From Microbacterium sp. (GTDB lineage Bacteria; Actinomycetota; Actinomycetes; Actinomycetales; Microbacteriaceae), in contig NZ_DATMIO010000177.1 in the NCBI RefSeq assembly GCF_035554235.1, positions 11,632 through 75,631 on the forward strand: a stretch of DNA of 64,000 nt, given 5' to 3'. How positions within the stretch are numbered: position 1 is the stretch's first letter; each line of letters begins with the position of its first letter. The notes beneath the pieces are model-generated. The model saw only the letters and a program-made list of their open reading frames with translations, was not told the origin of the DNA and searched no databases. Of this stretch, positions 52,545 to 64,000 are shown piece by piece. The translations under genes and the position numbers were made by a program.

Positions 52545-52940
52545 GTGATCGTCGGCATCGGCGTCGACCTCGTCGACATCCCTCGCTTCGAGCGCGCGAT
52601 CGAGCGCACGCCGCGACTGCTCGAGCGGCTCTTCTCCCCGGGCGAGCGGGTTCTGCCCCTCCGGTCCCTCGCCGCGCGGTACGCCGCCAAGGAGGCGCTG
52701 ATCAAGGCGCTCGGGGGTTCGGACGGCGTGCACTGGACCGAGATCGAGATTACCCCCGAGGACTCCGGGCGCCCGTGGTTCACGCTGGGCGGCTCGACCG
52801 CCGCCGTCGTCGCTGCACGGGGAATCACCCAGATCCACCTGTCGATGACGCACGACGGGGGATTCGCCGCCGCCTATGTGGTCGCGGAGTCCGCCGACGG
52901 GGCGGCAACGGCGCAGTCCGCCGACGGGGCGGCATGGTGA
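52545..52940 (+). CDS. acpS: Holo-ACP synthase
   Basis: IVGIGVDLVDI, AARYAAKEALIKA, HLSMTHD; C-term 27-bp duplication AESADGAAT/AQSADGAAW. Confidence 0.93.
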   Translation: MIVGIGVDLVDIPRFERAIERTPRLLERLFSPGERVLPLRSLAARYAAKEALIKALGGSDGVHWTEIEITPEDSGRPWFTLGGSTAAVVAARGITQIHLSMTHDGGFAAAYVVAESADGAATAQSADGAAW

Positions 52941-54061
52941 CGCGTCTTCCGCTCGGGGTCATGCGGGAGGCGCTCATCGACGTCTCCGCCATCACGGCGA
53001 ACACCCGCCACCTCCGGCGGCTCACCGGCTCGGAGGTGATCGCGGTCGTCAAGGCCGACGGCTACGGCCACGGCGCCGTGCGAGCGGCCGTCGCGGCGCT
53101 CGAGGGCGGCGCGGCGCGCCTGGGCGTCGCCGATACGACGGAGGCGCTCGCGCTGCGCACCGCAGGGATCACGAGCCCGATCGTGGCGTGGCTGCATGCC
53201 CCCGGGGCCTCGTTCGCGGAGGCCGCCTCGGTCGGTGTCGAGCTCGGCATCTCGAGCTTCGAGCAGCTGCTCGCCGCGGCGGCCGCGGCATCCATGGATC
53301 GCCCCGTGAGCGTTCACCTCAAACTCGAGACGGGACTCTCGCGCAACGGCGTCTCGGCCGCCGACTGGCCCATGCTCTGCGCGGAGGCGGCGCGGCTGGA
53401 GCGCATCGGCAAGCTGCGGGTCATCGGCCTCTTCAGCCACCTCTCCAACGCGTCGGCGGACGATGACCGTGTCGCCCTGCGCGCGTTCGAGCGCGGCATC
53501 CGCGTCGCCGCGTCGGCGGGGCTCCGCCCGCCGCTGACCCACCTCGCCGCGACGCACGCGGCGATCGACCTGCCCGAGGCCCGCCTCGGCTGCGTTCGCC
53601 TCGGCATCGGACTCTACGGGCTCTCTCCGTTCGCCGATCGCTCGTCCGCCTCCCTGGGCCTCGTCCCCGCCATGACCCTTCGCGGCGCCGTGGCGGCGGT
53701 GCGACGGGTCCCCGCCGGCCAGGGCGTGTCGTACGGCTACGACCACCGCACCGAGCGCGATACGACGCTGGCGCTCGTGCCCCTCGGCTACGCCGACGGG
53801 GTGCCGCGGCAGGCCTCCAGTGCGGGACCCGTGTCGATCGGGGGGGCCCGGTTCACCGTCGCCGGCCGCATCGCGATGGACCAGTTCGTGGTGGATGTCG
53901 GCGACCACCCGGTCGCCGTCGGCGATGAGGTCGTGCTCTTCGGCGACCCGACGCTCGGAACCCCCGCGGCCGATGACTGGGCCGCCGCCGCCGGCACCAT
54001 CAACTACGAGATCGTGACCCGCATCGGCCCTCGTGTGGCGCGGAGGCAGGTGTCGTCGTGA
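52934..54061 (+). CDS. alr: Alanine racemase
   Basis: VVKADGYGHG, HLKLETGLSRNG, RLGIGLYG, VSYG, PLGYADG, GRIAMDQ, TINYEI. Confidence 0.97.
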   Translation: MVTRLPLGVMREALIDVSAITANTRHLRRLTGSEVIAVVKADGYGHGAVRAAVAALEGGAARLGVADTTEALALRTAGITSPIVAWLHAPGASFAEAASVGVELGISSFEQLLAAAAAASMDRPVSVHLKLETGLSRNGVSAADWPMLCAEAARLERIGKLRVIGLFSHLSNASADDDRVALRAFERGIRVAASAGLRPPLTHLAATHAAIDLPEARLGCVRLGIGLYGLSPFADRSSASLGLVPAMTLRGAVAAVRRVPAGQGVSYGYDHRTERDTTLALVPLGYADGVPRQASSAGPVSIGGARFTVAGRIAMDQFVVDVGDHPVAVGDEVVLFGDPTLGTPAADDWAAAAGTINYEIVTRIGPRVARRQVSS

Positions 54062-54561
54062 GCGGGCTCGATGCGCTCACCGGCCGTCATGTGCTGAGCA
54101 CCGCGGATGACACCGAGGCGTTCGGCGAGAAGGTCGGCCGGATGCTGCGTCCCGGCGACCTGATCGTGCTGACGGGCCCGCTCGGGGCGGGGAAGACGAC
54201 CCTGACGCGCGGGATCGCCGCCGGGCTGGGGGTGCGCGGGCCGGTGCAGAGCCCGACGTTCGTGATCGCCCGGACGCACCCGTCGCTCGTCGGCGGGACC
54301 CCCCTTGTGCACGTCGACGCCTACCGCCTGGGATCAGCGCTCGAGCTCGACGACCTCGACATCGATGTGGACGGGTCTGCCGTCGTGGTGGAGTGGGGCC
54401 GCGGCATGGTCGACGGGCTGCGGGAGAGCTGGTGGGAGATCGAGCTCGAGCGCCCGATGGGTGGCCGCGGCGCCGACACGGCCTGTGGGGGACCCTCCCG
54501 CGCGGCGCTCGAGCTGGACATCGAGGCGCCGCGCACCGTGACGCTGTCCCGCCGGCCGTAG
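54058..54561 (+). CDS. tsaE: t6A biosynthesis ATPase
   Basis: GPLGAGKTT, VQSPTF, HVDAYRL, VVEWG. Confidence 0.95.
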   Translation: MSGLDALTGRHVLSTADDTEAFGEKVGRMLRPGDLIVLTGPLGAGKTTLTRGIAAGLGVRGPVQSPTFVIARTHPSLVGGTPLVHVDAYRLGSALELDDLDIDVDGSAVVVEWGRGMVDGLRESWWEIELERPMGGRGADTACGGPSRAALELDIEAPRTVTLSRRP

Positions 54562-54569
54562 GACGGGCC

Positions 54570-54897
54570 GCTCGGTCGGTGGCGGTGCCCCGGGGGTGGG
54601 TGGGTGCTCGGTCGGTGGCGGTGCCCCGGGTGGGTGCTCGGTCGGTGCCCTCCGGCGTGTCGCGGCATTGCCGGTGTTCCCGTTCGACGTACTCAAGTCT
54701 GCGTGTGCCCAAGCGCAGACTTGAGTACCCGATTCGTCGACAGCGAAACCCCGGGAATGGGCGCGGGGTGGGTTGGGAGGGCGGGTTGGGTTGGGAGCCC
54801 GGGGGCGCGGGTTGGGTTGGGAGCCCAGGGTGCGTCAGAGAGTCGGGGGTGCGTCAGAGAGCCCAGCGTGCGTCAGAGAGTCCAGGGTGCGTCAGCG
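54570..54897. repeat. Composite repeat region in tsaE-tsaB spacer
   Basis: 3 x GCTCGGTCGGTG.. (54570-54650); 15-bp perfect stem GTACTCAAGTCTGCG/CGCAGACTTGAGTAC (54689-54728); (GGGTT)n G-tracts (54765-54830); 4 x 19-bp GTGCGTCAGAGAG units (54830-54897). Confidence 0.9.
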
Positions 54898-54940
54898 GTG
54901 CCCGCGACCGGCCGATCTTGCGCGCGACTAACCTGGAAAG

Positions 54941-55648
54941 GTGATCCTGGCCGTCGACACCTCCATCGGCTCGACCGTCGTCGTGGTCGATGCGGACGGC
55001 GTCGTGCACGGCTCCGCCGTCAGCGAGACCCGCCTCGGCCACGCCGAGGCGATCGGCCTGCTCCTCGAGCAGGCGCTCGCCCAGGCGGCCGTGGCGCCGA
55101 GCGACATCACGCATGTCGTCGCCGGCATGGGACCGGGACCGTTCACCGGCCTGCGCATCGGCATCGCCGCGGCGCGCGTGTTCGCGCTCGCTCGCGCCGT
55201 GCCGTTCGTGCCGGTCGTGAGCCACGACGCCGTCGCTCTCGCGGGCGGCGCTGACGCCGCACCCGCTCACGCCGCACCCGCTCGCGCCGCACCCGTTGAC
55301 GCCGCACTCGCGGGCCCCGCACCCGCTGACGCCGCGCGGTCGGGCCGGTTCGCCGTCGTCACCGATGCGCGCCGGCGCGAGATCGCGGTCACTCTCTACG
55401 ACGGTGTCGACGACGACGGGATGCCGCGCAGAATCGAGGGGCCGAAACTCCAGGCGGCCGGCACGATCGGCGGGGTCGCGCTCGACCACGACTCGCTGCG
55501 CGTCGTCGCGTCGATCGATCCGGAGGGCCTGGGCCTTCTCGCCGCCCGCGCGATCGCGTCGGGGCGCGGCGCAGCGACATCCGAACCGCTCTACCTGCGC
55601 GCCCCCGACGTGACCCTCGGGCACACCCCGAAGCGGGTGCGGGCATGA
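54941..55648 (+). CDS. tsaB: t6A biosynthesis protein TsaB with internal 15-bp repeat insertion
   Basis: [35 protein letters not shown]; six 15-bp units at 55253-55342; TAACCT-N6-GTG start. Confidence 0.93.
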
Positions 55649-56139
55649 GCATCCGACCAGCGACCGGGGCAGACCTCGAGCCGATCATGGCGCTCGAGAA
55701 CGCCTCCTTTCCCGCCGACGCGTGGTCGGGTGCCATGATGCGCGAGGAACTCGCCAGCCCGCACGGCCACTACATCGTGCTCGAGAGCGCGGGCCGCGTC
55801 GTCGGCTACGCGGGACTGCGCGCCCCGCGGGGGGCGGCGGATGCCGACATCCAGACGATCGCGATCGCCGAAGCCGCCCGCGGACGCGGGTATGGCCGCG
55901 CACTTCTCGGCGCGCTGCTCGCGGAGGCGGTGTCGCGCGGCGTGCGGGACGTCTTCCTCGAGGTGCGCGCCGACAACCCCGTCGCGCACGCGCTGTACGT
56001 CTCGGAGGGATTCGCCGAGGTCGGCCGTCGCCCCCGGTACTACCAGCCCGACGACGTCGACGCCGTCGTGATGAAGCTCGACGTGCCCGGCTGGGTGGCC
56101 GCCCGCGGCGCCGCGCCCCAGGCGGAGGTGTGCACGTGA
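55645..56139 (+). CDS. rimI: Ribosomal-protein-alanine N-acetyltransferase
   Basis: [27 protein letters not shown]; between tsaB and tsaD. Confidence 0.92.
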
Positions 56140-57221
56140 ACCGCACCGACCCTCTCGTGCTCGGCATCGAGACGAGCTGCGACGAGACCGGCATCGGCAT
56201 CGTCCGCGGCCGCACGCTGCTGAGCAACACGATCGCCAGCAGTATGGACGAGCACGCGCGGTACGGCGGTGTCGTGCCCGAGGTCGCTGCGCGCGCCCAC
56301 CTCGAAGCGCTGCAGCCCGCGATCGAGGCGGCGCTCGCCGAGGCGGGCGTCACGCTCGATGAGCTCGACGCGATCGCGGTGACGAGCGGGCCCGGGCTCG
56401 CCGGAGCGCTGATGGTCGGCATCGGTGCCGCGAAGGCCCTGGCCGTCGCGCTCGGCAAGCCGCTCTATGCCGTCAACCACCTCGTCGGGCACATCGCCGC
56501 CGACATCGTGTCGCCGTCGGGCCGTCGCGACGGCGTGGCACCGCCCCTCGAGTACCCCACGGTCGCGCTCCTGGTCTCGGGCGGTCACACGTCCCTCCTG
56601 CTCGTGCGCGACCTCACGAGCGACGTCGAGCTGCTGGGCGAGACCGTCGACGACGCCGCCGGCGAGGCCTTCGACAAGGTCGCCCGGCTGCTGGGCCTGC
56701 CATACCCCGGCGGTCCCGAGATCGACCGGGCTGCGGCATCCGGAGACGCCACCGCCATCCGCTTCCCCCGTGGCCTCTCGCGGGCCTCCGACATGGACAA
56801 GCACCGCTACGACTTCTCGTTCTCGGGCGTCAAGACCGCCGTCGCGCGCTGGGTCGAGCAGCAGGACGGGGCAGAGATCCCCGTGGCCGACGTGGCAGCG
56901 AGCTTCCGGGAGTCGGTCGTGGACGTGCTCGTCACGAAGGCCCTCGACGCGTGCGCCCGGTACGACGTGCCGCGCCTGCTGCTCGGGGGCGGGGTCATCG
57001 CGAACAAGCGCCTGCGCGACGTCGCGATCGAGCGGGCGGATGCCGCGGGCGTGACCGTGCGGATCCCACCCCTTTCTCTGTGCACCGACAACGGCGCCAT
57101 GATCGCCGCGCTCGCGGCCGAGCTGATCAGGGCCGGTCGCCCGCCGTCGACGCTCGGCTTCGGCGCAGACTCCACGCTGCCGGTGACCGAGATCCAGATC
57201 GATGAGGCGGTGCCGGTATGA
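56136..57221 (+). CDS. tsaD: t6A biosynthesis protein TsaD
   Basis: [62 protein letters not shown]. Confidence 0.98.
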
Positions 57222-57682
57222 GCGGGACCGCGCCCGAGGGGCCGCTGCCGCGCCAGGAGCCGCCGACCCCGGATGTCGACCTCGACCACGCGATGCAGCC
57301 CGAGGCGCGCGTGCCGGGTGTGCCCGCGCCGACGTTCTCGCGCCTGCCCACCGGGCCGGTCGACGCGGTCACCGCCTCGCACGCGGAACCCGACCCCACG
57401 GCACCGCTGCCGCAGTGGATGGTGACCCCGCCGATCGCACCGCACCGCGGCCTCGGCGCGTGGGCGCTGGGTTTCGCGGTCGTCGGGCTCGTGGCATCCC
57501 TCTTCGTCGGCTGGGGCTTTCCCGTCTCGCTGGTGGGCGTCGTCGTGGCCGTGGTTGCGCTCCGGCGTCCCCTCGAGAGCCGTACGGTCGCGGCGTGGGC
57601 GCTGGCCCTCGGCATCCTCGGCCTGCTCTACAGCGCCGGATGGCTCGTGTGGGCCGCGAGCCGGATGAACGTCCTCGGCTGA
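57218..57682 (+). CDS. Membrane protein with Pro-rich N-terminus and two C-terminal TM helices (DUF4190-like)
   Basis: Hydrophobic [27 protein letters not shown] and [12 protein letters not shown]. Confidence 0.6.
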
Positions 57683-57705: not shown

Positions 57706-58893
57706 TCAGCGGGGGACGCGATCGGCGAGCACGGTCAGGCGCCGATCGCCGATGCGCGTCAGGATGAGCGTCGCCTGCCCGGGCCCACGGAGCGCCAGGC
57801 GCTTCCGGAGGGCCGCGGGGTCGACATCCACCCCTCGTTTCTTGATCTCGAGCGTTCCGATTCCGCGCTGTCGCAGCTCCTTGGCGAGCGCCTTCACATC
57901 GCTCGGCAGCACCTCGCGCACCCGGAAGCTCGAGACGAACGGGCTCGTCAGGGCCGCATCCCCCGTCAGGTAGGCGATGCCGGGGGAGAGCATGCCGGCA
58001 TCGAGGGCGCGGCCGACCTCGCCGATGAGGCGGGCGCGGATGACGGAGCCATCCGGCTCGTGGATGAACGCGCCGAGCTCGCGGGGCTCCGCGTCGGGGG
58101 CGTCGTCGGCTGCGGTCAGTTCGGCCGCCTCGTCCCCGCGCACGACGAGCGCCGCCCGGCGCACCCCCGGCCGGGCGAGTGCGCCGAACCAGAGCGCAAG
58201 CTCGACGACTGACCCGTCGACGCTCACCCACTGCGCCTCCGCTTCGTCGGGCACGGCCGACCGATCGAACCCCGGACCGAGCTTGATCCCGAGCGGCCGC
58301 TCCGCGCTCAGCCCGAAGGCCCACTCCAGCGCGGGCGAGTAGTCCTCGCTGCGCGTCAGCCTCGTCGTCTCGGTGTGTCCCGCCGTCCGTCGGGCCGGAT
58401 CGAGCCACACCGCATCCCAGCCCGTGAGGTCGACATCCTCCGCCCGGGCGTGTCGCACCTGTGCGCCCGGGCGGAAGGGCGCGAGGTTGTACGCGGCCAT
58501 CGCGGCCGTCACCTCGTCGGCGTCGACGGCGAGCACGTCGAGCCCCACCCCGGAGAACCCCATCGCATCGCCGCCGATGCCGCAGCCGAGATCGGCGACG
58601 CGCGCGAGCCCGGCATCGCGGAATCGCCGGGCGTGGAGCGCGGCGACCGGAAGCCGGGTCGCCTGCTCGAGGCCGGACGCGGTGAAGAGCATGCCGCCGG
58701 CGAAGTCGCCGAACTTCGCCCGGGCCCTGGCCCTCAGCCGGGCCTGCCCGACGACGGCGGAGACGAGCTCGGGCGAGTGCCCGGCCGCGCGGAGGCGTGA
58801 CACCTCGTGCGCGACGTCCGCGGTCGCCGAGGTCTCATCGAGCAGCCGCAGACCATCGGGGGTCAGCAGCGCCACGAGCTCGGCCATCTCCAC
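57706..58893 (-). CDS. Class I SAM-dependent methyltransferase with THUMP-like C-terminal domain
   Basis: LEQATR, ADLGCGIGGD, WLDPARR, EIKKRGV; leaderless-type TAGGTT-N5-GTG start. Confidence 0.85.
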   Translation of the reverse strand: MEMAELVALLTPDGLRLLDETSATADVAHEVSRLRAAGHSPELVSAVVGQARLRARARAKFGDFAGGMLFTASGLEQATRLPVAALHARRFRDAGLARVADLGCGIGGDAMGFSGVGLDVLAVDADEVTAAMAAYNLAPFRPGAQVRHARAEDVDLTGWDAVWLDPARRTAGHTETTRLTRSEDYSPALEWAFGLSAERPLGIKLGPGFDRSAVPDEAEAQWVSVDGSVVELALWFGALARPGVRRAALVVRGDEAAELTAADDAPDAEPRELGAFIHEPDGSVIRARLIGEVGRALDAGMLSPGIAYLTGDAALTSPFVSSFRVREVLPSDVKALAKELRQRGIGTLEIKKRGVDVDPAALRKRLALRGPGQATLILTRIGDRRLTVLADRVPR

Positions 58894-58896
58894 TGT

Positions 58897-58945
58897 GCAA
58901 CCTAACCACGCCGGGCAACCTAACCACGCCGGGCAACCCGACCAC
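58897..58945. repeat. Tandem repeat 2 x 18 bp plus partial third copy
   Basis: GCAACCTAACCACGCCGG x2, then GCAACCCGACCAC; the unit contains the -10 hexamer (TAGGTT, minus strand) of the methyltransferase gene. Confidence 0.9.
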
Positions 58946-59094
58946 CCCCTCCCGCTAGGGGATCCGCACCACGAACCCCCGTATCGATCCCGCAGTTACC
59001 GGGAGGCATCCCCGATGTGGTGGCCGCCGCGCATTCGTACTGTGAAGCGAAACACAAACGTCGGGGCGAATCGCCCCGGGATTGGGAAGCGCTC

Positions 59095-59988
59095 ATGGCT
59101 ATCGAGATCGATGACATCGACGACTCGTTCAACTCGCGAGTCCGTGATGTGACGAACACCGCAAACAGCAACAACACGGCCAATCTCGCCGTGGACATCG
59201 ACGATGTCGGCAACACCGACAACTCTGTCAACGACAGTGGCAACCTCGACGTCGCCGTCGCGGACTCCTTCAACGAGGACTCCCACGACGTGGATGTCGA
59301 CACGGACGTCGACCTCGACGACTCGTTCAACGACAACTCGGACAACTCGACGGACGATGACACCGACAACTCGACCGACGACTCGTACAACGACAACTCC
59401 GACAACTCGACCGACGACTCCTACAACGACAACTCCGACCACTCGGTCGACGATCACTCGGTCAACGCCGGGGTGCGCAGTTACAGCACCGGTTTCAACG
59501 ACCTCAACCTCGGCGGGGCGGCCGGCGGCGGCGGAGACATCACGGTCGATAACCGCGCCACGATCGTCGACCAGTCGGTCAACGCGAATGTCGACGGCGG
59601 GGGAGCCTACGGGCACTACAGCCCCGACGCGGTGGTGGCCTCGGGCGATGACGCCATCGCGGCGGGCGACGATGTCGATCTCTACACGTATGTCGACAAC
59701 TCCACCAACATCTCCGGCGAAGGCGACGTGAACGTCGGCAACGAGACGGAGATCACGACGGTCGTCGACTCCTTCAACACGTACACCGACAACTCGACGT
59801 ACGAGGACAACTCGGTCGACGTCGACATCGAGGACTCGTGGAACGACGAGTCCGAGACCTGGACAGCGACGGACTCGTTCAACGAGACGACCGACCTGTT
59901 CGCCGACACGGACGTCGATGTGGACGTCAACGCGATCGTCGACAGTTCGGACTCGGCCATCGTCGAAGACCTGGACGTCAGCTTCTGA
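59095..59988 (+). CDS. Highly acidic Asp/Asn/Ser-rich DS[FYW]N-repeat protein, paralogue 1 (IniB position)
   Basis: GC-rich-type codon usage, GGGAAG RBS; 297 aa with 66 D + 11 E, 4 R, no K, no C (manual count); 8 DS[FYW]N motifs; no signal peptide visible. Confidence 0.85.
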   Translation: MAIEIDDIDDSFNSRVRDVTNTANSNNTANLAVDIDDVGNTDNSVNDSGNLDVAVADSFNEDSHDVDVDTDVDLDDSFNDNSDNSTDDDTDNSTDDSYNDNSDNSTDDSYNDNSDHSVDDHSVNAGVRSYSTGFNDLNLGGAAGGGGDITVDNRATIVDQSVNANVDGGGAYGHYSPDAVVASGDDAIAAGDDVDLYTYVDNSTNISGEGDVNVGNETEITTVVDSFNTYTDNSTYEDNSVDVDIEDSWNDESETWTATDSFNETTDLFADTDVDVDVNAIVDSSDSAIVEDLDVSF

Positions 59989-59999
59989 CCTCTCTGCGC

Positions 60000-60054
60000 C
60001 CGGTCCCGTCGGTGGCCGCCTACGGGACCGGGTCCCACTGCTCCCGTGGAGCAG
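60000..60054 (+). terminator. Hairpins between the two acidic paralogues (terminator or mRNA-stabilising)
   Basis: CCGGTCCCGT/ACGGGACCGG stem (60000-60031); CTGCTCC-cgt-GGAGCAG (60038-60054); no U-tract. Confidence 0.45.
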
Positions 60055-60090
60055 GCCCCCTGAACATCCGAGAGAAAGTGATACCCCCTC

Positions 60091-60993
60091 ATGGCTCTGG
60101 AAATCGATGACATCGACGACTCGTTCAACTCGCGGGTCCGCGACGTGACGAATACCACAAGCAGCAACAACACCGCGAACCTGGCGGTCGACATCGACGA
60201 TGTCGGCAACACCGACAACTCGGTCAACGACAGCGGCAACGTCGGAGTCGATGTCGCGGACTCCTTCAACGAGGACTCCCACGACGTGGATGTCGAGACG
60301 GATGTCGAGATCGACGACTCGTTCAACGACAACTCCGACAATTCGACCGACGACGACACCGACAACTCGGTCGATGACTCGTACAACGACAACTCCGACA
60401 ACTCGGTGGACGACTCATACAACGACAACTCCGACCACTCTGTCGATGACCACTCGATCAACGCCGGGGCTCGCAGCTACAGCACCGGGTTCAACGACCT
60501 CACCCTCGGCGGCGCCGCCGGTGACGGAGACGTCTGGGTCGACAACCGGGCCACCATCGTCGATCAATCGGTCAACGCGAACGTCGCCGCGCACGGTCCC
60601 GTGGGGGCGGGATCGGGCGCGGACGCCGTGGTCGCGTCGGGGGATGACTCGATCGCCGCGGGCGACGATATCGACATCGACCAGACCCTGGACGAATCGA
60701 CGACGATCACCGGTGGGGGCGATGTCAACGTCGGGAACGAGACGGAGATCACCACCGTCATCGGCTCCTTCAACACCTGGACGGACAACTCGGTCGAGAC
60801 CGACGGCTCCATCGAGGTGGATATCGAGGACTCTTGGAATGACGAATCCGAGAGCTACACGGCGGACAACTCGTTCAACGAGGAGCTCGTCTCGGTGAGC
60901 GAAAACGACTGGGACATCGACGCCAACGTCATCTGGGGGAGCGATGACAGCGCCATCGTTCAAGACGTTGCCGTGGATCTTCCACCGGCGTGA
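60091..60993 (+). CDS. Highly acidic Asp/Asn/Ser-rich DS[FYW]N-repeat protein, paralogue 2
   Basis: Collinear with 59095-59988 (near-identical N-terminal half, diverged C-terminal half); no K or C. Confidence 0.85.
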   Translation: MALEIDDIDDSFNSRVRDVTNTTSSNNTANLAVDIDDVGNTDNSVNDSGNVGVDVADSFNEDSHDVDVETDVEIDDSFNDNSDNSTDDDTDNSVDDSYNDNSDNSVDDSYNDNSDHSVDDHSINAGARSYSTGFNDLTLGGAAGDGDVWVDNRATIVDQSVNANVAAHGPVGAGSGADAVVASGDDSIAAGDDIDIDQTLDESTTITGGGDVNVGNETEITTVIGSFNTWTDNSVETDGSIEVDIEDSWNDESESYTADNSFNEELVSVSENDWDIDANVIWGSDDSAIVQDVAVDLPPA

Positions 60994-61141
60994 TCCGAGC
61001 GTGCTGACCCCGCAGCGGGACTCCGCGGCCTTGTGGCCCCGAACCGGTCGATCCGGTCCGGGGCCATCGGGCTGAGAACGACCAGGTGTGACGAGAACCA
61101 CGACACGACCGAAGGACACGACACGACCGAAGGAAGAGACG

Positions 61142-63034
61142 TTGAATCCGACCGCACGGCCCACCGCAATCGCCACCACCCCGCCGAGTCCTCAACCTCG
61201 AGGCTCGGACTCCGGGCCTGGCGCGTTCGACCTCGTCACGCTCGTGGAGAAGGCCAGGGGCCTCTCTCGAAGCCTGGGTCGCGCCGATCTCGTGAAACGG
61301 CTCGAGCAGACCCGTTCCCGGCTGGTCGATCCGCATGTGCGGGTGATCATCGTCGGTCAGTTCAAGCAAGGCAAGAGCAAGCTCGTCAACGCCCTGATCA
61401 ACGCGCCGGCGTGCCCGGTGGACGATGATGTGGCCACGAGCGTCCCGACGTCGGTGGGGTACGCGCAAGAGGCTTCCGCGGTCGTTCTGGTGCGCCACGA
61501 GAACGGCCCGGACGCCAGCATCGAGCGGATCCCGATCCCTCTCGAGAGCCTCGCGGAGTACGTATCCGAACGCGGCAGCCGTGACGACGAGCGCGACATC
61601 GTCGGAGCCGAGGTGCTCCTCCCGCGGGAGCTGCTCAAGGGCGGCCTGAGGCTGATCGACTCGCCGGGTGTCGGCGGCCTCGAATCGACACGTTCGCTGA
61701 GCACCCTCGCGGCCCTCTCGACGGCGCACGCCGTGCTGCTCGTGTCGGATGCCTCGCAGGAGTACACCGAGCCGGAGGTGCAGTTTCTGCGCCATGCGAT
61801 GCGCATCTCCCCCAACGTCGCCGCGGTCCTCTCCAAGACCGACATCTACCCCGAGTGGCGTCAGATCGAGCAGATCGACCGAACCCATCTGGGAGACGTC
61901 GGCGAGGTTCCGATCTTCGCCGTGTCGAGCGATCTGCGGATGCTGGCCGCCGGGCAGCAGGATCGAGACCTCAACGAAGAATCCGGCTTCCCTGCACTCA
62001 TCGCGCACCTCAAGCGCGACGTCGTCGGGCAGGCGGAGACCATCAATCGACGCGCCGCCGTGCACGATCTCGGATCCGTCGTCGACCAGCTGTCGATGTC
62101 GCTGCAGACCGAGCTGAACGCCCTCCTGCACCCGGAGGACACCCCGCGTCTCATCGCCCAGCTCGAAGAGGCCAAGAGCCGCGCGGACGAGTTCCGCAGC
62201 CGGTCATCGCGGTGGCAGGTCACCCTGAGCGACGGCATCGCCGACCTCATCTCCGACACCGAGCACGACCTCCGCGATCGGCTCCGCAAGGTGCAGCGCG
62301 AGGCGGAGAGCTCCATCGAAGAGGGTGATCCGGGCCCCATCTGGGACCAGATCGCCGAGTGGCTCGACGAGCGCGTGTCTGCGGCGGTGGCCGAGACCTT
62401 CGTGTGGACCAACGAACGATCCCAGTGGCTCGCCGAGCAGGTGGCGGTGGAGTTCTCGGAGGGGGAGTCCGCCATCCCGCTCATCGACGTCGCCGACACG
62501 GAGGGGCTGCTCGATCCGGTGGAGCAGCTGCAGAGCCTCGATGAGGGTCGGCTGGGTGCCGCCGAGAAGATCTACATCGGGGTGCGCGGTTCGTACGGCG
62601 GCGTCCTGATGGTCGGACTCGCGACGAGTCTCATCGGGCTCTCGCTCGTGAACCCCCTGTCGCTGCTGGCGGGAGTGATCGTGGGGCGTCGCGCCTATCG
62701 AGAAGACATGTCCTCGCGCCTCACCCGCCGTCAGCTCGAGGCGAAGAACCTCGTGCGCCGGCACATCGAGGATGTCGTGTTCCAGGTCGGGAAGCAGCTG
62801 AAGGATCGGCTGCGGTTCGTTCAGCGGGTGGCCAGGGATCACTTCGGCACCCTCGCCGACCAGCTCCACCGCTCGCTCTCCGACGCGGTCCTCGCCACCA
62901 AGCAGGCCGCCGCCACCTACACGGCCGACCGCGATGGGCGCGTCAGGGAGCTGCAGCTGCAGCTGCGACGGATCGAGGCGCTCCGCGACGAGATCCCCGA
63001 ACTGCTGGCGCTCGATGCGAAGGCCTCGCGGTGA
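61142..63034 (+). CDS. Dynamin-like GTPase, IniA-like (start 61142 TTG or 61088 GTG)
   Basis: G1 GQFKQGKS, G3 DSPG, G4 SKTD; coiled-coil stalk; hydrophobic hairpin GGVLMVGLATSLIGLSLVNPLSLLAGVIVG; 18-bp duplication of the RBS region at 61099-61134. Confidence 0.88.
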   Translation: MNPTARPTAIATTPPSPQPRGSDSGPGAFDLVTLVEKARGLSRSLGRADLVKRLEQTRSRLVDPHVRVIIVGQFKQGKSKLVNALINAPACPVDDDVATSVPTSVGYAQEASAVVLVRHENGPDASIERIPIPLESLAEYVSERGSRDDERDIVGAEVLLPRELLKGGLRLIDSPGVGGLESTRSLSTLAALSTAHAVLLVSDASQEYTEPEVQFLRHAMRISPNVAAVLSKTDIYPEWRQIEQIDRTHLGDVGEVPIFAVSSDLRMLAAGQQDRDLNEESGFPALIAHLKRDVVGQAETINRRAAVHDLGSVVDQLSMSLQTELNALLHPEDTPRLIAQLEEAKSRADEFRSRSSRWQVTLSDGIADLISDTEHDLRDRLRKVQREAESSIEEGDPGPIWDQIAEWLDERVSAAVAETFVWTNERSQWLAEQVAVEFSEGESAIPLIDVADTEGLLDPVEQLQSLDEGRLGAAEKIYIGVRGSYGGVLMVGLATSLIGLSLVNPLSLLAGVIVGRRAYREDMSSRLTRRQLEAKNLVRRHIEDVVFQVGKQLKDRLRFVQRVARDHFGTLADQLHRSLSDAVLATKQAAATYTADRDGRVRELQLQLRRIEALRDEIPELLALDAKASR

Positions 63035-64000
63035 AGCGCGGAGAACTCGACGAGGTCGGCGACCTGGTGGAGCTCGCGCGGGATCTCTACGGCGATGATC
63101 CCGCGGCGTCGGAGGAGCTCGACGCCTACAGCCGACGGCTGCAGGAGCCGCTGCGCCTCGCGGTCGCCGGGGTGGTCAAGGCAGGCAAATCCACCCTCCT
63201 GAACGCGATGATCGGCGAGCAGATCGCGCCGACCGACGCCGGCGAGTGCACGCGCACGGTCACGTGGTATCGCCACTCCCGCACGGCCCAGATCACCGTG
63301 CACAGAAGCGACGGCGGCGTGGAGCGGATGCCGGTGCGGCGCGACGGGAGTCACCTCGTGCTCGACATCGGCAACCTGACCGCCGACGAGGTGGAGTGGA
63401 TCGACGTGGCGTGGCCGGCGGAGAACCTTCGCTCCACGGTGCTCATCGACACCCCCGGTATCGCCTCGCTCTCGGTCGAGACGTCGGCGAAGTCCACGAG
63501 GTTCCTGACCCCGGAGAACACCCACTCGGCGGCGGATGCCATCATCTACCTTCTGCGCCACATCCACGCGGCCGATGTGAAATTCCTGCAGGCGTTCCGC
63601 GACACGGCCGCCGGGGCGTCCGAGACGGTGAACGCCGTGGCGGTGCTCTCCCGAGCCGATGAGATCGGCTCGGGCCGGATCGACTCGCTGCTCTCCGCCG
63701 CCCGGATCGCGGAGCGCTACCGCCAGGACGGCGAGCTGCGCGCCCTCACGCTCGGAGTGATCCCGGTGGCGGGGCTCGTCGCAGAGGGAGCGCGCACCCT
63801 GCGCGAGAGCGAGTTCATCGCGTTCCGCTCGCTGGCGGCTCTCGACCGGACGGTGAGGGAGCGGCTGCTCGTCTCGGTCGACAGGTTCACCCGTCCCACG
63901 AACGAGACGGCACTGAGTGTGGCGGTCCGGCAGGATCTGCTGCGCCGCTTTGGGATCTTCGGTGTGCGCCTCGGTGCCGCCCTCGTGCGTGCGGGCGCCG
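63031..64000 (+). CDS. Second dynamin-like GTPase, IniC-like (3'-truncated; absent from ORF track)
   Basis: GTGA overlap; VKRGELDEVG..PLRLAVAGVVKAGKSTLLNA (G1), LIDTPG (G3), LSRADEIG (G4); open to window end. Confidence 0.88.
   Translation, partial: MKRGELDEVGDLVELARDLYGDDPAASEELDAYSRRLQEPLRLAVAGVVKAGKSTLLNAMIGEQIAPTDAGECTRTVTWYRHSRTAQITVHRSDGGVERMPVRRDGSHLVLDIGNLTADEVEWIDVAWPAENLRSTVLIDTPGIASLSVETSAKSTRFLTPENTHSAADAIIYLLRHIHAADVKFLQAFRDTAAGASETVNAVAVLSRADEIGSGRIDSLLSAARIAERYRQDGELRALTLGVIPVAGLVAEGARTLRESEFIAFRSLAALDRTVRERLLVSVDRFTRPTNETALSVAVRQDLLRRFGIFGVRLGAALVRAGA

Follow-up and report, generated by a model that had tools for sequence, protein, structure and literature searches.

The window analysed here, a 64,000-nucleotide stretch of the Microbacterium sp. 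contig NZ_DATMIO010000177.1, contains a predicted operon that begins with two tandem plus-strand genes for extremely acidic, repetitive proteins of 297 and 300 amino acids (protein 1, 59095..59988; its paralogue, protein 2, 60091..60993) and continues into two genes for dynamin-like GTPases. All coordinates are window positions unless marked L008, which denotes the contig stretch fetched to extend the window beyond its end. Judging from sequence comparison, the two acidic proteins are headless paralogues of IniB that occupy the IniB slot of the locus: they lack the N-terminal domain of IniB but retain an IniB-type central core. Furthermore, in the copies ahead of the dynamin genes the head has been replaced by additional acidic repeats and a conserved hinge of the NAGxRxYNTGFG-Gly type, and the gene has been duplicated.

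Loss of the IniB head and retention of the core

Neither protein is recognised by the standard resources: no match was obtained in Pfam or NCBIfam scans at E <= 1, or with the PADLOC models. In particular, the IniB head, an N-terminal domain of about 49 residues (NF038175 in NCBIfam, PF27122; cut-off 40 bits), gives no NF038175 match at E <= 1 in either protein. A search of the whole genome with protein 1 as the query nevertheless retrieved a third paralogue, the headed IniB of the same locus (249 amino acids), the N-terminus of which matches NF038175 with 69.2 bits, well above the cut-off, and the C-terminal 143 residues of which align with residues 151-293 of protein 1 at 50% identity (BLASTP E 7e-26). 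The same relationship is seen in a profile search of 1.84 billion representative proteins, which produced 168 matches; the full-length ones are all of the Microbacterium type, and the distant ones cover only the profile positions from about 145 onward, beginning about 100 residues into the target. The IniB N-terminal domain is present in 63 of 64 of these distant core relatives, and a local hidden Markov model of the head identifies it in 63/64 headed relatives and in 0/61 close family members. Comparison of the close family with the headed relatives using hhalign yields a probability of 99.7% (E 1.3e-25) across residues ~149-252, the shared core being marked by the motif string TIVDQSVNxN...VVASGDxxIAAGDD...GDVNxGN. 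An earlier note on this DNA had taken the two proteins for an unrelated, 'different IniB'; the homology of their core to that of the headed IniB shows this view to be incorrect, and the family search that the note had proposed, with the IniB N-terminal domain included, recovered the core and found the head to be missing.

In sister genera of Microbacteriaceae (L010 and L012), the gene in the IniB slot, flanked directly by iniR and iniA, encodes a headed protein in which the head is followed by a Gly-rich linker, the core described above and a tail containing eight DDSFN[DE] repeats; a Pseudonocardia locus has a similar arrangement. Given that these headed IniBs carry the same repeats, the DS[FYW]N motifs and the extreme acidity represent the normal IniB body in Microbacteriaceae. 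The headed copies are annotated in databases, whereas the headless ones, for which no Pfam or NCBIfam domain is available, are listed as 'hypothetical protein', with the exception of one automatic name, 'Fibrinogen-binding protein'.

Two of the related loci deserve a separate mention. In the headed IniB of L010 (genome G072), a Gly-rich linker of the GGAGGNGG type joins the head to the acidic body, so that one protein unites the Gly-rich style of mycobacteria with the acidic one. In L009 (genome G043, from another genus of the family), a headless homologue encoded upstream of an IniA gene has its conserved hinge and core preceded by dozens of almost perfect DNS tripeptide repeats (DNSDNSDNS...), an extreme form of the repeat expansion that the tandem proteins show.

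Composition, repeats and selection

Protein 1 can be divided into a region of DS[FYW]N and D-[DN]-S-x repeats (residues 1-125), the conserved NAGxRxYxTGF-Gly hinge (120-148), the IniB-type core (149-215) and an acidic DSFN/DSWN tail (216-297). The compositional features pointed out in the earlier note all hold on recounting: both proteins are close to 300 residues long, are devoid of Lys and Cys (with 4 Arg each), and consist of acidic residues to about 26% (66 D + 11 E in protein 1, 61 D + 15 E in protein 2), which results in net charges of -73 and -72, respectively. The recurring DS[FYW]N motif occurs 8 times in protein 1 and 6 times in protein 2, whereas 20,000 composition-preserving shuffles contained it 0.06 times on average and never more than twice. 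The regular repeats in the proteins are 12-20 residues long, and the 12-residue unit noticed previously, DDSYNDNSDNST, is matched at the DNA level, where repeats are spaced by 12, 24 and 36 nt, as expected of this unit and the D-[DN]-S-x quartet. No signal peptide or transmembrane segment was detected in either protein (the best 19-residue Kyte-Doolittle mean is 0.5-0.85), in agreement, as regards the signal peptide, with the earlier observation, and neither contains a sortase motif or a lipobox. The absence of Lys is not a fixed trait of the family: 37/61 homologues lack it and the other 24/61 have 1-3 Lys. Because Arg is depleted to the same degree, the lack of Lys is best regarded as part of a general lack of basic residues, and we rejected avoidance of pupylation as a specific explanation on the same two grounds.

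Sequences of such low complexity, with no database domain and with a local G+C content of 0.61-0.62 against ~0.73 in the flanks, might be suspected of being artefacts or decaying, functionless duplicates. This reading is effectively refuted. The paralogues, which are 77% identical, show a ratio of nonsynonymous to synonymous substitution rates (dN/dS) of 0.26 at dS 0.66, with dN/dS values of 0.11 for the N-terminal and 0.35 for the C-terminal halves, indicative of purifying selection; the C-terminal halves have diverged more than the N-terminal ones, as had been stated in the earlier note for this duplication. The G+C content of third codon positions (GC3) is 0.87-0.91, as in the neighbouring genes including the dynamin gene, so that the local dip in G+C is accounted for by the Asp, Asn and Ser codons, that is, by an amino acid effect. 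A foreign origin of the low-G+C stretch was rejected for the same reason. Moreover, 316 homologues were found, and among the hundreds of intact copies the aromatic motifs are conserved and certain Gly, Arg and Asp positions are invariant, while the number of repeats varies freely; the promoter and the ribosome-binding context of the genes are conserved as well. Together, the dN/dS values, the host-like GC3 and the excess of motifs over shuffled sequences imply that these are constrained genes rather than low-complexity noise.

Predicted structure and the paralogue history

In the charge-hydropathy plot, the tandem proteins fall on the disordered side. AlphaFold2 models have a mean predicted local distance difference test (pLDDT) score of 47.7 when built with 61 homologues and of 53.8 with 148 sequences including the headed relatives. 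Only residues ~170-215, within the core, reach pLDDT values of 70-78 and form two short strands; there is almost no other secondary structure. A Foldseek comparison of the better model to the PDB gave no match at E <= 0.001 (the best E value being 4.1), and a profile search of PDB sequences with the tandem family found nothing at E <= 1.

These results bear on the suggestion, made in the earlier note, of a beta-solenoid, amyloid or condensate. In its most specific form, this scenario posits a cation-binding beta-solenoid or an amyloid-like stack, with the two paralogues forming a heteropolymer that would serve as a scaffold for the dynamins. Alternating hydrophobic and acidic strands (VDVDTDVDL), turn-like G-D/N motifs in the core, the regularity of the repeats, the strands and moderate model confidence at residues 170-215 and the retention of the duplication in at least 23 sampled species would all be compatible with such an arrangement. 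We nevertheless consider it rather improbable, given the low mean confidence of both models and the near absence of predicted secondary structure (neither model contains a confidently predicted repetitive beta fold), the lack of Foldseek, PDB or Pfam matches, amyloid and RTX families included, and the free variation in repeat number between homologues. The loose resemblance to Fap amyloid repeats remarked on in the earlier note is not substantiated either, in that no Pfam family, Fap included, was matched at E <= 1.

The history of the two copies provides a further argument. Two tandem headless copies were found in at least 23 species of the sample, which comprises 301 species genomes of the genus. 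In a maximum-likelihood tree, 11 changes of the distal and proximal labels are required: the distal and the proximal copies fall into two distinct sets of orthologues in some clades, and in others, including that of the present genome, the two copies from the same genome are each other's closest relatives. The existence of two clean, ancient paralogue lineages was therefore rejected. Combined with the lower dS in the N-terminal halves (0.47 vs 0.88 in the C-terminal halves), the label changes suggest gene conversion or repeated duplication. Repeated homogenisation or re-duplication is not what one would expect of two fixed, distinct subunits, and it weakens the idea of a fixed heteropolymer; what survives of the latter is the observation that the duplication has been kept in many species.

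The surrounding ini locus and its distribution

The pair of dynamin genes that the earlier note placed after the acidic genes is indeed present. The gene for the IniA-like GTPase (61088..63034, +; Pfam Dynamin_N E 1.3e-16) encodes a full-length homologue of M. smegmatis IniA (PDB 6J72, E 2.5e-130; residues 49-640 aligned with 4-596), and it is overlapped by 4 nt by the gene for an IniC-like GTPase of 507 amino acids (63031..64000, +; Dynamin_N E 3e-13), the open reading frame of which extends 554 nt past the end of the window (L008:5663-7186 in full). The latter protein shows weak matches to BDLP and IniA, and its role as IniC is assigned by position and family. As homology to IniA begins at residue ~49, the start codon of the iniA-like gene is uncertain. 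An exact 18-nt tandem duplication (CACGACACGACCGAAGGA x2 at 61099-61134), which encodes TTRPKD/TTRPKE, lies in this 5' extension, upstream of the point where the IniA homology starts, so the true start codon may be located further downstream.

Beyond the end of the window, four minus-strand genes converge on iniC. The first of these encodes a small multi-pass membrane protein of 217 amino acids (L008:7115-7768, -) and shares 72 nt with the iniC-like gene, the two genes meeting at their 3' ends; it also overlaps the gene of the headed IniB (L008, -) by 14 nt, next to which it is likewise found in L004, L005, L006 and L013. The remaining two genes code for a LuxR-type protein of 848 amino acids with a GerE helix-turn-helix domain (L008, -) and an Hsp70-like ATPase of 700 amino acids (L008:11233-13335, -, ~4.6 kb past the end of the window). 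On the evidence of its match to the IniR model NF038181 (E 1.1e-98, profile positions 290-826, 331.7 bits, short of the equivalog cut-off of 750), the 848-residue protein can be considered a homologue of IniR. The Hsp70-like protein consists of the nucleotide-binding domain, one transmembrane segment and a long, presumably extracytoplasmic tail rich in Pro, Thr and Glu, with no substrate-binding domain; its homologues adjoin ini genes in Microbacterium (L004, L006) and Pseudonocardia (L007). An open reading frame of 178 codons beyond the Hsp70-like gene was discarded because it looks like an antisense artefact. With an IniA homologue, an IniR-like protein, an Hsp70-like protein and a headed IniB next to each other, the proposal of an iniBAC-like module turns out to be well founded, and gene content and sequence similarity identify the Microbacterium locus as in all probability a genuine ini locus like those known from mycobacteria (PMC5760070, PMC6715688, PMC10240201). 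Likewise, the acidic proteins do occupy the IniB slot, as had been claimed, being encoded on the same strand directly upstream of iniA-iniC.

The linkage to dynamin genes, for which the earlier note had suggested neighbourhood analysis, is found wherever the flanks allow: in every related locus with enough flanking sequence, an IniA homologue is encoded immediately downstream of the headless gene or genes. The recurrent layout consists of one or two headless genes, iniA and iniC, and then, at a distance of 4-6 kb and in the opposite orientation, the headed gene. The family or its core is present in 84/301 genomes, IniA in 85/301, and both in 83, so the ini locus is accessory, occurring in ~28% of the sampled species of the genus. 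In the upstream sequences that were aligned for 11 species, the start of the same conserved gene is found (the THUMP-like methyltransferase gene in the window); this shared upstream gene suggests repeated loss rather than mobility.

This patchy distribution could also be taken as a sign of an anti-phage system, that is, dynamin-based defence of the LeoA/LeoBC type or akin to B. subtilis DynA, in which the acidic proteins would act as a sensor or decoy, and the PADLOC models of LeoBC and LeoA do match the two GTPases (E 3e-17 and 3e-8). The GTPase is, however, far closer to IniA than to the Leo proteins, the combination of an IniR-like protein and IniB is a signature of the envelope-stress module, the shared upstream gene in the related species is not what a mobile island would show, and the acidic proteins match no PADLOC model. 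We regard a defence function as very unlikely.

A shared promoter signature

The acidic/iniA/iniC operon is preceded by a promoter signature, CCCCGATGTG-N18-TACTGT (59010..59043, +), with a short inverted repeat, CCCGCAGTTACCGGG, just upstream of it, and a GC-rich hairpin in the 5' untranslated region, CGGGGCGAATCGCCCCG (59062..59078, +), identified by a stem-loop scan just before the ribosome-binding site. The upstream alignment of 11 species has an invariant CCCCGATG separated by a gap of 17-19 nt from a -10 element of the TANNNT type before the distal acidic gene; the aligned species share an inverted repeat before the promoter box and a GGGG...CCCC hairpin in the 5' untranslated region after the -10 element. 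This hairpin is found at the same place in most of them, its conservation being judged by position. The ribosome-binding context of the distal gene is conserved across the alignment. The consensus CCCCGAYGYG-N17-19-TANNKT is found upstream of the distal gene in the related loci compared, and there are exactly two such sites in the 2.88-Mb genome, one before acidic gene 1 and the other before the headed iniB; the reversed control pattern has no match in the same genome. Since both sites belong to this locus, the acidic operon and the headed iniB unit appear to share a dedicated signal.

In mycobacteria, IniR is reported to bind the iniBAC promoter (PMC5760070). The adjacent IniR-like STAND/LuxR protein seems the likeliest regulator of the shared signature, and envelope stress the likeliest trigger. 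Two further RNA elements are located in the spacers. Two GC-rich stem-loops between the acidic genes (59998..60054, +; fold energy -47.4 kcal/mol, z -2.55) possibly constitute an attenuator or an mRNA-stabilising element, and a GC-rich hairpin directly follows the stop codon of the distal gene in many related species; a long GC-rich stem-loop separates acidic gene 2 from the iniA-like gene (61024..61075, +; -51.9 kcal/mol, z -2.41). These structures would fit the acidic genes being expressed above the dynamins; in M. marinum, iniB transcripts are reported to exceed those of iniA and iniC (PMC5760070).

Comparison with known systems

The closest counterpart of the present locus is the mycobacterial iniR-iniB*-iniBAC locus with IniB (Rv0341) and IniB* (Rv0340). 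In both cases, the genes in question are the first in an operon leading into iniA and iniC, the body of the encoded proteins is of low complexity, nearly free of basic residues and variable in length, an IniR or IniR-like protein is adjacent, and two IniB-type genes per locus share one domain. The differences are equally clear. The tandem proteins lack the IniB N-terminal domain, their body is rich in Asp, Asn and Ser rather than Gly and Ala, the domain shared with the second IniB-type gene is the central core and not the head, and the headed gene is convergent and located on the other side of the dynamin genes. With the headed IniBs of Microbacteriaceae and other Actinomycetota (the third paralogue and the IniR-adjacent genes of L010-L012), the tandem proteins share the core, the tails with DDSFN repeats and the linkage to IniA/IniC, but they differ from these in the lack of the head and of the Gly- or Pro-rich linker and in the presence of extra DS[FYW]N repeats and the NAGxRxYNTGFG hinge before the core. 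The two adjacent, translationally coupled genes for dynamin-like GTPases are reminiscent of Campylobacter DLP1/DLP2, Streptomyces DynA/DynB and E. coli LeoABC; none of these pairs, however, is known to come with acidic repeat proteins, a regulator of the IniR type or an ATPase resembling Hsp70. Literature searches brought up no account of acidic or headless proteins of the IniB type from outside mycobacteria.

A possible mode of action

What could such proteins do? The scenario that we find the most plausible, and consider moderately probable on the strength of the sequence data, is that the headless IniB paralogues, co-regulated with the headed iniB, act in the cytoplasm together with an assembly of IniB, the dynamins and the Hsp70-like protein at the membrane. 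Under this hypothesis, the acidic genes would be the first two cistrons of an operon running into the iniA-like and iniC-like genes, with the headed iniB and the small membrane-protein gene transcribed separately under the same promoter signature, and the acidic proteins would be made in excess of the dynamins. They would stay on the cytoplasmic side as polyanionic chains, either largely unfolded or folding only with cations; such a location and unfolded tendency are suggested by the lack of a signal peptide and of transmembrane segments, the charge of -73, the charge-hydropathy plot and the low pLDDT outside the core. The shared core might then bring the acidic proteins into the assembly of IniB, the dynamins and the Hsp70-like ATPase at the membrane, where they could modulate the engagement of IniA/IniC with, or their remodelling of, damaged membrane.

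Several considerations weigh against this hypothesis. Likening a protein to IniB explains little, given that IniB is, to our knowledge, itself unexplained. Conservation of the aromatic motifs and invariance at Gly, Arg and Asp positions point to a defined structure or mode of binding over a plain disordered brush, and perhaps, as far as the sequences suggest, for folding that depends on cations or on a partner. We only infer the link between the promoter box and IniR, and an alternative or dedicated sigma factor fits equally well. Finally, descriptions of mycobacterial IniB place it in the membrane or cell wall and among the cargo of vesicles (PMC10240201, PMC7350357), and these reports on its localisation fit an exported role.

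The last point leads to the main rival, an extracytoplasmic role, whereby the acidic proteins would be exported by a non-classical route or as dynamin-dependent vesicle cargo and, as polyanions, would bind cations in the envelope, acting as the protein equivalent of teichoic acids. Mycobacterial IniB is annotated as a cell-wall or membrane protein and reported among vesicle cargo, the release of vesicles requires both IniA and IniC (PMC10240201, PMC7350357), a Cys-free composition rich in Asp, Asn, Ser and Thr is common in surface proteins of Gram-positive bacteria, and the neighbouring Hsp70-like protein has a presumably extracytoplasmic tail rich in Pro and Thr. Arguing to the contrary, the tandem proteins possess neither a signal peptide or transmembrane segment nor a lipobox or sortase motif, the locus showed no genes for secretion, and all partner domains that can be assigned (the dynamins, the Hsp70 nucleotide-binding domain and the IniR-like protein) are cytoplasmic. 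We deem export unlikely, albeit the strongest competitor of the cytoplasmic hypothesis.

A more elaborate version of the cytoplasmic hypothesis can be envisaged, in which the core common to the headed IniB and its two headless copies would mediate their co-assembly. The one headed protein would dock via its head at the Hsp70-like ATPase and the small transmembrane protein and would seed or anchor the assembly, and the abundant headless copies would extend it into a cation-switched, polyanionic coat on the inner face of the membrane, to be recognised or remodelled by IniA/IniC in the course of envelope damage. We offer this anchored assembly as a speculation and consider it improbable; if true, it would provide the first mechanistic role for IniB proteins.

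Implications

In mycobacteria, the iniBAC operon is classically used to report the action of drugs that target the cell wall, and mycobacterial IniB, with its Gly/Ala-rich sequence, is hard to analyse. The tandem pair described here is an unannotated variant of this known stress module, the mechanism of which is unexplained. The Microbacterium locus splits IniB into one head-bearing copy and two headless copies that keep the well-conserved core of 100 residues, and a compact, genome-unique promoter signature ties these pieces together. This setting, which is non-pathogenic and genetically simpler, lends itself to asking whether the core serves as an IniB-IniB or an IniB-dynamin contact, what purpose the head has, and what the polyanionic repeats contribute. 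In practical terms, several hundred proteins now listed as 'hypothetical' (316 matches) can be assigned to the ini system, and their annotation could be updated accordingly.

Other observations upstream of the operon

The gene divergent from the acidic operon, on the minus strand at 57706-58893, encodes the THUMP-like methyltransferase, and an exact 18-nt tandem duplication (GCAACCTAACCACGCCGG x2 at 58897-58932) lies between this gene and the operon promoter. Further upstream, reading of the translated open reading frames by eye suggests the conserved gene string alr - tsaE - tsaB - rimI - tsaD at 52775-57221, which is followed by an open reading frame for a small membrane protein at 57218-57682.

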